DNA of 64,000 nt, from assembly GCA_000004695.1 (NCBI GenBank), contig CM000155.2:1184001-1248000 (forward strand), in the 5' to 3' direction. This stretch comes from Dictyostelium discoideum. Its lineage: Eukaryota. Position numbers and translations under genes: made by a program. Below the pieces are notes generated by a model. That model was not told the origin of the DNA. It worked only from the letters and a program-made list of their open reading frames with translations, and searched no databases. Below are positions 22,887 to 32,618 of this stretch, piece after piece. Position 1 is the stretch's first letter. The number at the start of each line of letters is the position of its first letter.

Positions 22887-25800
22887 ATAGGGAACATTAT
22901 TTTCAAGTATTAAAGGATCAAAATGGGCAATTAAAGATGATACAGTTCAAGTTCAAATGGATAAACAACAAACAGGTGTAAAATGGAGTCATTTATTATC
23001 AGAAATTACAGAATCAAATGCAAAAGCAGTTGTGTTATTTGAATATGAGGCAACCTCTGAAGAGGAATTATCATTAATACCACATCAAGTCATTGATATC
23101 ATTTCAAAGGATGATTCTGGTTGGTGGGAAGGTTCAAAACAACAAATGAATGGTGTATTTCCATCAAATTTCGTACAAGAATTTCCAACTGATTATCAAC
23201 CACCTGAAGATGAGGATGCAAGTGCAGAGGCTACAAAAGAGGAGGAAATATCGAAACCAATTAGTCAAGTCTCAAGACTTGGTATTAATATTAGTTTAGG
23301 TAGTATGGATGAATTAAAGAATAAATTAGCAAATAGAAAAACTGCAACTTATACATCTGCTGATATTGAAGAGGCTCATAATAATAATAATGCTTCAAAT
23401 GAAGAATCTAATAGTAGTAGTAGTAGTAGTAGTAGTAGTAATATTAATAGTAGTGGTGGATTTGTAGCAGTTAAACCAAGTGGTGCTGTAAATACACAAC
23501 AAAGACAACCAGGTAAAGTTTTATTAAATAATAGACAATCAACTATACTTTCAGGTGTACCACCAGCAATTCAATCAATTCCATCATCAAATACAAATAC
23601 AACCACCACCACCAATACTACACCAGCAGTTCAACCATTAATTCAATTAAAACCAAAACAAACAAATACAGAGATTAATACGAGTGGAAATTCAATCCCA
23701 GCAACAACATCAAAAGAATCACAATCAACTAAAGAGGAATCATCTAGTGGTGGCAATAAAATTACATCATTATTTAAAAAACCATTGAAAAAGATTACAG
23801 CGATTTCAGCATTAACAGGTTCACATTCAAGTAATGAAAGTAGTAGTGGTGGAGATAAAAATAATAGCGGTAGTAAAACAAAAGCGAAAGTAGTTTATGA
23901 TTTCGAAAGTAAAGAACCAAATGAATTAAATTTGAAAAAAGGTGATATTATCGTTGTTTTAGCAAAGGATTCATCCGGTTGGTGGCAAGGTATAAATCAA
24001 TCAACTCAAGCAACTGGTTGGTTTTCAAATACATTTGTCGAGGAGATTAAAGAGGAGAAATTACCACCACCACCATCATCATCTGAAAATAAACAACCAT
24101 TAAAGATTGTTAAATCACCACCACCAAAATCATCATCATCATCACAACCACAAACAGTTGAAGCAAAATTACAATCATTATCAGATACACCAAAATTGGA
24201 AACAGCAAGAAAAGCAGGTGCTGCTAAAGGTAGAAAACCACCATCAAGAGTACGTGCCTCTTATTTATTATCTGATGATGAAAAAGCAGAGAGAGAAAAA
24301 CTTAAACAAAGTTTTTATTCTCATGTTGTTTCTTCACAAAAAGAACTTTCAATGTATGATAATAATGAAGATGGTGGTGAACATCTATCTGATGATGATC
24401 AACCATCAACACCACCTTCAATTTCACGTAGTGGAGGTTCATTCACTCCAACACAACAACAACAACAACAATCAGTTGATAAACCTATTGAAAGACCATC
24501 AAAACCACCACCACCAAAACGAACAGCGGCAATGAATAGCTCACTTAATAATATAAATGAACCACCACCACCAAGTAATAAACCACCACCACCACCAAAA
24601 TCATTAAAACCACTCTCAACTAGTGATGGATATGAACCACCATCACCACCATCATCATCGTCAACAACTCCAATTACAACAAGTGGTGAAGATACTCTTC
24701 AAAAATCACCTACATTACAAAGAAAAGTTGCGCCACCACCACAACAACAAAATGAACAAGATTTACCATCTTCACTTGTCGGTAAACCACCACCACTTAA
24801 ACCAACTCCAAAACCAAGAGCAATACAGACAAACAGCGAATCAACAGCACCAGCACCAACACCTTCACATGAAGTTAACTTTAAAGCAAACCTAAAACCA
24901 GCAAAACCTTCATCACCACCAATTGGTAATTCACAAGAAATTCCAACAGATACATCATCACCACCAAATGCAACTACACCACAACCAACACCTCCACCAT
25001 TAAAAAGAGTAGCTAAACCACCTGTACAACAACAACAACCATCAAATGAAAATATTGAAAATATAACACAATTTAAATTAAAACCATCACCAGCTTCACC
25101 AACTTCACCAAGTTCACCAACTATTGATCCAATTTCAACCACAACTAAACCACCAGCTAGACCACCATTAAAGAAATCAGCAGCAGCAGCAGCACCACCT
25201 TCACCACCAAATGAAGAAGCTACAACCACATCACCACCAACATTAGCAGCAAAACCAAAAGTAGCCTTAAGAAATGGACCAAGCTCAGCACCAACATCAC
25301 CATTATCACAACCACAACAACCACTACCACCATCAACTCATAAGAGAAATCTTTCAAATCCAAATACAACCAACAATGAAAAACCACCACCACCAACTAA
25401 AAAACCACAATTAATAAAACCATTACCACAATTTAATGACATTTGTGTTGAAGTATCAAATATTTGTAATGAAATTCAAGAGAGAAGCGATAACTCTCAA
25501 GAGACAACCACCACCTTTAAACATAATTACCCATCATTGATTGATTCATTCTTTTCAGTTGCCGTTTGTAGTAATGATGGTCAATTTTGGGGTAACGATG
25601 ACCAATTGAATGATCATTGTGTACCAATGTTTCAAGTTATCTATCCATTCCTTTACTCGATACTTTGCGAAGAGATTGGTTTGGATGAAGTTTCAAAGTT
25701 TATCTCTGATCAAGCTAGACCTGACAGTTACGACAATCAAAAACCACTAAACGATCAAAAGAAATCACATAATCCATTCACATTGGCTGGTCAATTGATT

Positions 25801-26418
25801 ACAGCAAATCTGTTCACTGGTAAATATCCAAATGCCGTCACTAGAATCTACCAATTTTTAAATATAATTCAAGAGTTGGTAAATTGTAGTAGTGTTTCAT
25901 GTGATATGGTCTCTTATTTATCTCAAAAATCTGAAACCTCTGATGAGATATTGGTGGGTCATTTATTGAAATCCTCTGGATTAATTAAACAACCTGATGA
26001 TGTTTTAGACTTTTTCTATCAAATCAATTCAATTCAATTAAATTCAAAACAGGTTTCAGTATTGGCTGCAACACTTGCCAATGATGGTGTTTGTCCATTC
26101 TCTCAAGATTTGAAATTAGCCCCTAAAAATATAATCTCAAAAACTATTGACCTCATTAGAATTTGTAATTCAACTCCAATAACCTCTTCAATTTTCGATA
26201 ACAATATTGATAATATTAATAATTCTAAAATAATTCCTATCTTAAGTGATAGTGGTGTCTTAATGATTATCATTCCTGGTTTAATGGGTGTTTCAATCAT
26301 CTCTCCATGTAATAATAATAATAATAATAATAATAACAATAATGATAATTTCAATCATTATCCAAATAATAATCATATTGAATTTTGTAAAAAATTATGT
26401 TCAATTTTAGATCAATAA
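22606..26418 (+). CDS. Multidomain protein: N-terminal CS (p23/HSP20-like) domain + two SH3 domains + long Pro/Ser-rich linker + C-terminal glutaminase-like domain lacking the catalytic Ser/Lys
   Basis: Exons are 22606..22746 (GTATGT donor) and 22891..26418. The CS-like beta-sandwich is WHQSNNLVYVTFNIP...GLNCE|GTLFSSIKGSKWAIKDDTVQVQM. SH3-1 is AKAVVLFEYEATSEEELSLIPHQVIDIISKDDSGWWEG...GVFPSNFVQEF. SH3-2 is KAKVVYDFESKEPNELNLKKGDIIVVLAKDSSGWWQG...GWFSNTFVEEI. The glutaminase fold is VAVCSNDGQ, HNPFTLAG, DFFYQINSIQL...VSVLAATLANDGVCPF and IPILSDSGV...IPGLMGVSIISP. In the VPMFQVIYPFLY region the expected S-x-x-K nucleophile is replaced (S becomes I, K becomes F). Confidence 0.7.
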
Positions 26419-26753
26419 TTAAAAAAAAAAAAAAAAAAACTATAAATAAATAAATAAATATATAAATATATTTTAAAAAAAAAAAAAAAAATAAATTAAA
26501 TTAAAAGAAAAAAAAAAAATATGTGTATAACAATATTTTAGCTAATTGTCCAATAATTTTTTTTTTATTTTTTTTATTTATTTATTTTTTTTTTTTTAAA
26601 AAAATATAAATATTCTTGGATTTTTTTTTTTTTTTTTTAAAAAAAATATAAATAACTACATAAACACAATTTTGATATCTTCTGTTTGTGTGTTTTATAA
26701 TTATTTTAAATTAAAAAGATGGCTTTCTTCAAATAATTTTTTTTTTTTTTTTT

Positions 26754-26794
<41 letters not shown>

Positions 26795-26815
26795 TTTTTT
26801 TTTTTAATTTTTTAA

Positions 26816-26846
<31 letters not shown>

Positions 26847-26910: not shown

Positions 26911-27002
26911 ATGGTTACAGGTATAAAGGTAATGAATTTATATCAAAATATAATTTTACCACATATGGTTTGATTATTAACATTTTAAAAAAAATTTTTT
27001 TT

Positions 27003-27036
<34 letters not shown>

Positions 27037-27718
27037 ACAGAAAACTGTTAAAGTAGTAGTTGTAGGTGATGGTGCTGTTGGGTATGTATTTTTTTTTTAT
27101 AACACATTTTCAGAAATAGAAAAAAAAAAAAAAAATACTAATTTTTTTTTTTTTTTTTTTTTTTTCTAAAAAAAATTTAATAATCCCCACCAATATTTTA
27201 TTATTACTATTTACGAAATTACAATGAAAATCCAATAAAATTTGGTTGAATTTTTTTTTTTTATAATACAGTAAAACTTCACTTTTAATTTTATATACAA
27301 CTAAAGCATTCCCAAAAGATTATGTACCAACAGTATTTGGTATGTGTTGGATTATTTATAATAATTAAGTTAATCCTCAATCATCATCAATCATCATCAA
27401 TCATCATCATCATCATCATTATAGTGATCGTGATTTAATAATTGACCAATATCAACAATCAAAAACAACTCAACAGCAACAAGAGCAATTATACTTATAT
27501 TTTATTTATTGAAAAAAAAAAAAAAAATTATTATTATTATTATTATTATATAGATAACTTTAATTGTTTAGAGATGTACGATAATAAACCAGTTAATTTA
27601 GTATTGTGGGATACCGCTGGTCAAGAAGATTATGATAATTTACGTCCATTGTCATATCCACAGGTAAGTTTTCATTGTTACTTAATTTTAAATAGATATT
27701 TATGATTAATTCTAATAT

Positions 27719-27761
<43 letters not shown>

Positions 27762-28299
27762 TTATTTCTAGACTGATGTATTTATAATATGTTATTCAGT
27801 AGTTAAAAGAGATTCGTTAGATAATATAAAGTATAAATGGTTACCTGAAATTAATCAAACTAATCAGGGTACACCAATTATTTTAGTTGGTACAAAGACT
27901 GATTTAAGGGAGGACAAAAAAACATTATCACAATTACAAGAATCAAAACAAGAACCAGTTTCAAGAGATGAAGGTGTAGCATTAGCAAAAGAGATAGGTG
28001 CAGTACAATTTTTCGAATGTTCTGCATTGACAGGTAATGGTGTAAATGATATTTTCGCTGCTGCAATTAAAGCAGCTTTTAATAAACCTGCTGTAACTTC
28101 ACCAACTTCGAAATCTAGTGGTAAATCTTCACCTTCATCTACCTCTTCAAAACCTTCTAAAACTACTACTACAACTACAACCTCTTCTTCTTCTTCTTCA
28201 CCACCTGCTGCTTCAACTGCAAAACCAGCAGGTGAAAAGAAATTAAGTTGGGGTTTGTTCCGTAAAAAAGATAAAGATGAAAAGAAACCAGCAAAATAA
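26911..28299 (+). CDS. Rho/Rac-family small GTPase with Ser/Thr-rich, Lys-rich C-terminal extension and no CAAX box, 5 exons
   Basis: Exons are approximately 26911..26928, 27041..27081, 27272..27339, 27554..27663 and 27772..28299. G1 is [11 protein letters not shown](S). The Rho insert context is YVPTVFDNF. G3 is WDTAGQEDY. Also present are [13 protein letters not shown]4 TKTDLR and G5 ECSAL. The protein ends ...[22 protein letters not shown] with no Cys. The first 6-codon exon and the start codon are tentative. Confidence 0.65.
27715..27765. repeat. (ATTT)n microsatellite within intron 4 of the Rac-like gene; (CATCAT/CAATCAT)n at 27371..27420 in intron 3
   Basis: The sequence is atttatttattt... 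directly upstream of the ttctag acceptor. Confidence 0.85.
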
Positions 28300-28482
28300 A
28301 TTTATAATCAAATAAAAAAAAAAAAAAAAAAAAGAATAAAAAAAAAAAAATAAAAAAAAAAATAAAAAAAAAAAACCAACAAATGAGATATTATCACACA
28401 TAACTTTAAACATCCCTGGAAAAAAAAAAAAAAAAAAAAAAAATTGTTTTTTTTCCGGCTATTTATTTTTTTTTTTTTATTT

Positions 28483-28514
28483 TAGGTTTAAAACCCTGCC
28501 ATTTCCCCGGGAGG

Positions 28515-28520
<6 letters not shown>
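28483..28520. other. GC-containing palindromic element (taggtttaaaaccctgccatttccccgggagggttttaaaa) about 190 bp downstream of the Rac-like gene stop
   Basis: aaaaccct and agggtttt are reverse complements. A central cccggg palindrome is flanked by long A-runs. This could be a terminator-like hairpin or a short repeat remnant. Confidence 0.4.
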
Positions 28521-28555
<35 letters not shown>

Positions 28556-28817
28556 CCATTAAACCAATTATTTAAAAAAAAAACTTTTAAGATTCCCTTT
28601 TTTTTTTTTTTTTATTTTTTTTAAATTTTTTATTTTTTTTATTTTATTTTCATTCCTTTTTAATAGGGGTTTTGTTTAAATTATTAAATTTCACTATGTT
28701 CACAAACACACCAATCATTTTTTTATTTATTTTTTATTTTTTTTTTATTTTTTTTTTTTATTTTCATTTTTTTTAATTTATTTTTTTTTTTTTTAAAAAA
28801 AAATTTTATGCTTTGAA

Positions 28818-28853
<36 letters not shown>

Positions 28854-29026
28854 TTTATTATAAATGAAAATAACAATTATCCCAACATCATCAATCAATT
28901 AAATATTTTATAAATTTATAAAAAAAAAATAAAAAAATAAAAAAATAAAAAAATAGGATTAATTCTTATCAAAATTATTTTCAAAAAAAAAAAAAATAAA
29001 AATAAAATAATTAAATCATTTAAACA

Positions 29027-32618
<3,592 letters not shown>

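Follow-up and report, generated by a model that had tools for sequence, protein, structure and literature searches.

How a Rho-family GTPase that ends without a cysteine could reach a membrane, and whether its gene has been read to its true end, are the questions raised by positions 26911-28299, on the forward strand, of the window, a 64,000-nucleotide stretch of Dictyostelium discoideum DNA (contig CM000155.2). The initial annotation of this locus described a Rac/Rho-family GTPase that lacks a CAAX box and is extended at its C terminus by a Ser/Thr-rich, polybasic segment, and the two ends that it gave coincide exactly with an ATG and a stop codon. It did not name the member of the Dictyostelium Rac/Rho set concerned. 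An exact-sequence look-up of the spliced protein identifies the locus as racD of D. discoideum AX4, with all residues of the 254-residue product matching the entry for "Rho-related protein racD" (UniProt P34150; XP_629838.1; EAL61344.1), and the gene is thus the same as that encoding the RacD of Bush et al. 1993 and Rivero et al. 2001. The D. purpureum orthologue carries the annotation racD, and the gene order SH3-glutaminase, racD, exportin-7 is the same in D. firmibasis, D. purpureum, D. citrinum and a second D. discoideum isolate. We hold with high confidence that the locus is racD; the mechanistic part of our reading, that its conserved tail would bind membranes without lipid modification, we infer.

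The two neighbours of racD lie on the same strand. Upstream, positions 22957-26418 hold an uninterrupted ORF of 1153 residues that contains two SH3 domains, extended low-complexity stretches rich in Pro, Ser and Thr and, at its C terminus, a glutaminase domain (Pfam PF04960, E = 5e-26), which is an unusual domain combination; orthologues of this SH3-glutaminase also match a CS domain. The downstream neighbour starts at 29027 (MSIQSEQDFFKF...), and its orthologues contain the exportin-7 TPR domain (PF25795). Ahead of racD, about 100 nt at 26737-26843 are nearly pure T with short A breaks, and more T and A runs follow up to the ATG; such a T/A-rich tract is typical of Dictyostelium promoters. 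The intergenic region between racD and the exportin-7 gene contains, at approximately 28430-28570, G/C-containing patches (ttccggc, tttccccgggagggtttt) in surroundings of otherwise ~12% G+C. Sister species and the second D. discoideum isolate either lack these patches or differ there; the patches may reflect an insertion specific to AX4 or poor quality of the reference sequence. Neither Rfam nor a tRNA scan gave a match anywhere in the window, the patches included.

The gene model, which was built directly from the window sequence, consists of five exons and four introns, each intron running from GT to AG, and yields a coding sequence of 765 nt that specifies 254 residues followed by TAA (Table 1). 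The introns are 108-214 nt long and have a G+C content of 9-21% compared to 33% in the coding sequence. The earlier count of at least four or five small exons holds as to number, but "small" does not apply to the last exon, which measures 528 nt. Microsatellites had been noted in two introns, and Tandem Repeats Finder places them in intron 3, with (ATC)n/ATCATCAATC at 27373-27419 and (ATT)7.7 at 27527-27549, and in intron 4, with (TATT)13 at 27716-27767. Introns 1 and 2 harbor long homopolymer runs. Two of the splice junctions can be compared with outside data. Orthologue N termini of the form M(A/S)xGIKKT fit the exon 1/2 junction, and a published primer pair for RacD G17V matches exon 2 and crosses the exon 2/3 junction; because its forward primer is contiguous in the spliced coding sequence only and not in the genome, the latter junction is independently confirmed.

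Table 1. Features of racD in the window, with the basis or character of each
Feature	Position	Strand	Basis or remarks
Exon 1 (MVTGIK)	26911..26928	+	start codon at 26911; splice model
Intron 1	26929..27040	+	112 nt; GT-AG; 12.5% G+C; T-run
Exon 2, first part of P-loop	27041..27081	+	splice model; primer match
Intron 2	27082..27271	+	190 nt; GT-AG; A and T homopolymer runs
Exon 3, end of P-loop and switch I YVPTVF	27272..27339	+	splice model; motif mapping
Intron 3	27340..27553	+	214 nt; (ATC)n/ATCATCAATC and (ATT)n microsatellites
Exon 4, switch II, with WDTAGQ at 27607-27624	27554..27663	+	splice model; motif mapping
Intron 4	27664..27771	+	108 nt; (TATT)13 microsatellite
Exon 5, remainder of G domain, linker, tail and TAA stop	27772..28299	+	528 nt
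TKTDLR (exon 5)	27892-27909	+	
Rho insert (exon 5)	27910-27957	+	
ECSAL (exon 5)	28015-28029	+	
Ser/Thr/Pro-rich linker, residues 185-229	28087..28221	+	18 S, 11 T and 6 P in 45 residues; predicted disordered; poorly conserved
C-terminal basic-aromatic motif, residues 234-254	28234..28296	+	Cys-free; putative prenyl-independent membrane-binding site

Two further observations concern the N terminus. Codon 2 (26914-26916) is GTT, encoding Val, in the AX4 reference window, whereas the residue is Ala in the GenBank RacD entry AAG45121.1, in the second D. discoideum isolate (L009, codon GCT) and in nearly all other species sampled; the Val is either a strain polymorphism or an error in the reference. 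In the annotation of another D. discoideum assembly, the protein (P0125) has 267 residues as 39 nt of intron 1 (26929-26967) are read through to an in-frame donor at 26968. This N-terminal extension finds support in no orthologue and hence appears to be an annotation error, not an isoform.

Much of what the locus displays is already known. The racD gene, its exon structure and the absent CAAX box have been in print and in curated databases for more than 20 years, and that RacD has no CAAX box is by now a textbook fact about Dictyostelium Rho proteins. In the abstract of Rivero et al. 2001, RacD and RacA are reportedly described as unique among Dictyostelium Rho proteins in missing a prenylation motif. 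Section 4.5 of the review by Filić et al. 2021 states that RacD has no CAAX motif and carries serine-rich insertions near its C terminus, and for RacD that section draws on Bush et al. 1993 and Rivero et al. 2001 (PMC8305917). Earlier work cloned a RacD cDNA and produced GFP-RacD strains, and saw no binding of RacD to the DH domain of GxcDD (PMC1914345). In the literature searched, we found no report of RacD localization or lipid binding and apparently no description of the basic-aromatic motif in its tail or of a function for it. The explicit delimitation of this terminal motif, and the breadth of its occurrence as judged from aligned proteins, would be the only element here that is mildly new.

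Is the GTPase itself in any way unusual? RacD matches the Pfam Ras family with E = 5.9e-50, and among solved structures human Rac1 and Rac3 match it best (E ~5e-71); both results lie far outside what chance would give. Against Rac1 residues 3-183 the alignment has no gaps, indicating that the Rho insert is present, and an AlphaFold model calculated from a 20-sequence family alignment predicts the insert helix at residues 128-136. On Rac1 crystal structures, the predicted G domain superimposes with 61% identity and a TM score of 0.89. Together with motifs G1-G5, these data sustain the original assignment to the Rac/Rho family, and the G boxes are indeed intact, as had been stated: GDGAVGKT spans residues 15-22, WDTAGQ 61-66, TKTDLR 120-125 and ECSAL 161-165, and T40 is also in place. 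The RacD residues that align with Rac1 G12, T35, Q61 and W56 are identical to those of Rac1. Thus, RacD should cycle as a normal GTPase, unlike the atypical Rho proteins that are constitutively GTP-bound. Neither Pfam nor the AlphaFold model provides any additional folded domain. A published tree joins RacD to RacH and RacP at a place between the Cdc42/RacC and Rho/RacE groups and outside the Rac subfamily proper, and this RacD/RacH/RacP clade has been termed an amoebozoan innovation in which Archamoebae are also represented (PMC8305917). Judged by its sequence, then, RacD is a catalytically competent Rho-family switch, and it is the anchoring that departs from type.

For the anchoring to be unusual, the annotated stop codon has to be the real end of the protein. 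We scanned 28090-29030 in three frames for a CAAX-encoding exon. The only C-x-x-x-stop mini-ORF in 28300-29026 is GFCLNY-stop at 28667-28687, directly after an AG. When 28300-29026 was shuffled, the mean number of such ORFs was 0.45 and 37% of the shuffles contained at least one. The Cys codon of GFCLNY-stop changes from TGT to TAT in the second D. discoideum isolate, and no C-x-x-x-stop ORF is present downstream of racD in D. firmibasis, D. citrinum or D. purpureum. A hidden CAAX exon was consequently rejected: the one candidate is a chance-level ORF that is lost in the second isolate and absent in three sister species.

By contrast, the end of the annotated protein recurs throughout the group. 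Orthologues of Dictyostelium, Heterostelium, Cavenderia, Tieghemostelium and Acytostelium all end ...KK[LMS]SWGLF[RK]KKD... and are Cys-free. Four intronless contigs of 1.3-1.4 kb from JGI and Logan samples (L005-L008) carry the ORF of a RacD orthologue (P0004) that is 81% identical; the ORF ends ...EKKVAK-TAATAA, with the stop in the same place as in racD, and is followed by ~110 nt and a long A run. As read from their sequence, these contigs would look like spliced, polyadenylated mRNA. They also imply that an as yet unsequenced dictyostelid expresses racD in those environmental samples. The absence of a CAAX box, as originally proposed, is upheld by the identity with the curated entry, by the same ending in all sampled dictyostelid orthologues and by the lack of a conserved downstream CAAX mini-exon.

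The racD end would still be incomplete if a minor isoform joined exon 5 to a downstream CAAX-type mini-exon; a candidate runs from a phase-0 GT at 28093, within exon 5, to the AG at 28665-28666, giving a protein that ends ...AAFNKPA-GFCLNY-stop. The mini-ORF does abut an AG, the GT is phase-compatible, and the product, at ~192 residues, would have the typical size of a Rho protein. Yet the mini-ORF occurs at chance level and is not conserved, CLNY would be unusual as a CAAX box, GTAACT makes a weak donor and, at 574 nt, the intron would far exceed the other racD introns in length. Moreover, such an isoform would remove the conserved tail, and the transcript-like orthologue contigs carry the long tail. 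We regard this isoform as extremely improbable, and the sequence comparisons appear to exclude a hidden CAAX exon for practical purposes.

What follows the G domain falls into two parts of different character. Cysteines are found in RacD only at residues 47, 86 and 162, so that the final 92 residues are Cys-free, in keeping with the earlier statement that the last 90 or so contain none, and the C terminus quoted at that time matches the translated sequence. The description of a Ser/Thr-rich, polybasic extension likewise stands: the linker alone has 18 Ser and 11 Thr, and the last 25 residues have a net charge of +6 and no Cys. To express conservation we used the share of aligned residues matching the window protein in seven dictyostelid orthologues. 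By this measure, the G domain (residues 8-184) matches at 90% on average, the linker (residues 185-229) at 40% and the terminal motif (residues 232-247) at 87%. Among the members of the family alignment, F242 is invariant (20/20) and K235 and K244 are nearly so. AlphaFold assigns residues 187-254 a pLDDT below 50 and does not pack them against the G domain.

Within the linker, a coding (TCT)n run of serine codons at 28183-28199 varies in length, along with nearby Ser/Thr substitutions, among isolates of the D. discoideum complex, whose proteins are 253-259 residues long. In D. discoideum isolates themselves, RacD has 254, 256 or 259 residues as the linker varies via this run. From these comparisons, the run seems to behave as a coding microsatellite under relaxed constraint.

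The theme of the tail, basic-W-x-[LIF]-F-basic and free of Cys, extends beyond the Dictyostelia. It recurs in environmental relatives, with endings such as KKPAWGLFGKK, KKPAWSLFGKKK and KKTWSLFGKKK, and, as the variant FFSWKR, in two Pelomyxa schiedti proteins that end SFFSWKRNKDK; VWNFFRRKK and KKTWLFWKRGNK are further Cys-free endings outside the Dictyostelia. A profile search with the 20-sequence family alignment over 1.84 billion representatives was dominated by the G domain, and very few hits had an alignment that reached the tail. Three of these (P0039, P0049 and P0240) have a Cys-free W/F-basic ending, two (P0145 and P0267) end in CAAX and one (P0253) is merely lysine-rich.

To gauge the membrane-binding potential of the tail, we calculated a basic-hydrophobic score over 19 residues at a time, based on inverted Wimley-White interfacial values but with +2 for K and R, and compared it with the published threshold of 0.6. 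The scale is an approximate reconstruction, so the score is indicative only. In RacD it exceeds 0.6 only at residues 236-248, where this approximate scale gives a maximum of 0.78, and the polybasic region of Rac1 scores 0.79. The C-terminal tail is the site of the maximum in 20/20 family members on the same approximate scale. Two structural arrangements of the tail were considered. Folding back onto the G domain, on which a model of this kind has only limited bearing, finds no support in the model, in which residues 187-254 have a pLDDT below 50 and no predicted structure. An amphipathic-helix anchor was rejected, as it fits poorly with a helical hydrophobic moment that reaches at most 0.47 in 11-residue windows and with an AlphaFold model that shows no helix there; given this low moment and the missing helix, an unstructured site is preferred.

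By analogy with RIT1 and RIT2, the RacD tail is most likely an unstructured basic-hydrophobic membrane-binding site. In such an arrangement, a disordered S/T-rich spacer of ~45 residues and a terminal motif would replace the polybasic region and the geranylgeranylated CAAX cysteine. The S/T-rich segment would serve as the flexible spacer of a membrane tether, and the terminal cluster may bind acidic phospholipids of the inner leaflet through electrostatics combined with interfacial insertion of its Trp, Leu and Phe. Lysines and an arginine flank the L, W, L and F of this cluster, a composition known from unstructured sites that bind at the bilayer interface on acidic lipids. The outcome would be a weak, reversible membrane association that requires no lipid modification. 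That the tail is conserved across the sampled dictyostelid genera while the spacer evolves freely singles out the tail as the probable functional replacement for prenylation. This conservation pattern makes it reasonable to suppose, as the initial annotation did, that any membrane association would involve the polybasic/Trp motif or partners.

To bind, RhoGDI must bury the geranylgeranyl group. It follows that RacD should not be handled by RhoGDI and, having no prenyl group, should escape RhoGDI extraction. Lipid charge would instead govern the membrane cycle of RacD, perhaps together with phosphorylation of the KKLS serine. In the Dictyostelia the Ser of KK[LMS]S-W lies in a basophilic-kinase context and might act as an electrostatic switch; many relatives outside the Dictyostelia have Ala in place of this Ser or lack the position, which makes the phospho-switch idea weak. 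The four acidic residues of the tail, E234, D246, D248 and E250, also leave it with a weaker charge than RIT or MARCKS.

A different reading takes the conserved tail to be a short linear motif for a protein partner, such as a chaperone, scaffold or adaptor that reads W-x-[LI]-F and the flanking lysines, or calmodulin, with localization driven by that partner. The order and spacing of W-x-[LIF]-F-x-[KR][KR] are kept in dictyostelids and in most of the environmental relatives, with F242 invariant. Basic-hydrophobic lipid sites are reported to depend on composition and not on sequence (PMC6960411). Positional conservation in the RacD tail consequently hints at a specific reader, and a lipid site defined by composition alone would not need so precise a W-x-[LI]-F spacing, so that a protein partner is conceivable. 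Membrane binding by RIT is itself modulated by protein partners (PMC13565119). However, no partner of the tail is known, and FFSWKR in Pelomyxa and WLFWKR in P0240 alter the spacing and keep the basic-aromatic composition, which favors a compositional and hence lipid-binding role. We consider localization by a partner rather unlikely as the account of the tail; the two roles are compatible, and neither excludes the other.

Even less weight can be given to the idea that the lysine-rich end is mainly a nuclear-localization signal or a solubility tail, with RacD soluble or nuclear instead of working at membranes. A 28-kDa protein with a K/R cluster and no lipid anchor could enter the nucleus, and the polybasic region of Rac1 doubles as a nuclear-localization signal. 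The CAAX-less proteins RacA, RhoBTB1 and RhoBTB2, moreover, are not classical membrane switches (PMC8305917). Against this, the best-conserved positions of the tail are W239, L241 and F242, which a nuclear-localization signal does not need, and D and E residues break up its basic ones. A mainly nuclear or solubilizing function is, on balance, improbable, and an unstructured membrane-binding tail remains our preferred reading.

A broader proposal, plausible but tentative, is that the basic-W-x-[LIF]-F-basic motif defines an old Rho subfamily in the Dictyostelia, the Archamoebae and environmental relatives, so far seen only in Amoebozoa and these relatives, in which prenylation would have been swapped for a lipid-modification-free anchor or a partner-docking motif on a disordered S/T-rich tether. 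If true, this would provide a RhoGDI-independent way for a Rho switch to cycle on and off membranes. Showing how such a switch is targeted when neither a lipid nor, presumably, RhoGDI takes part would extend Rho GTPase biology in a modest but genuine way. A useful outcome at this point is a sharper, testable question about the RacD tail, for which Dictyostelium is a convenient experimental organism.

Comparison with known systems helps to place RacD. Human Rac1 and Rac3 share about 60% identity with it over the G domain, ungapped including the Rho insert, and beyond the G domain the proteins differ: Rac1 ends in PVKKRKRKCLLL, that is, a polybasic region with a geranylgeranylated Cys, whereas RacD continues into a 45-residue S/T-rich spacer and a Cys-free basic-aromatic motif. 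Within the Rho family, RacA, RhoBTB1 and RhoBTB2 resemble RacD in having no prenylation motif (PMC8305917), but the RhoBTB proteins contain BTB domains and are about twice its size, and RacD has no extra folded domain. A mechanistic analogy is offered by RIT1 and RIT2, which likewise combine an intact G domain and no CAAX box with a basic C-terminal extension. In RIT1 and RIT2 this extension is necessary and sufficient for membrane localization and binds phosphatidylserine (PS) and phosphoinositides (PMC13565119). As RIT belongs to the Ras subfamily and not to Rho, the two tails are not homologous, and the RIT extension directly follows the G domain while a long S/T linker intervenes in RacD. 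A further precedent comes from Dictyostelium itself, where basic-hydrophobic sites of myosin 1s bind acidic lipids and drive membrane binding (Brzeska et al.; PMC6960411). Like the RacD tail, these sites of Dictyostelium and Acanthamoeba myosin 1s are short, unstructured and composed of K/R with aromatic or aliphatic residues; the myosin sites, however, are internal and composition-dependent, whereas the RacD motif is C-terminal and its order is conserved.
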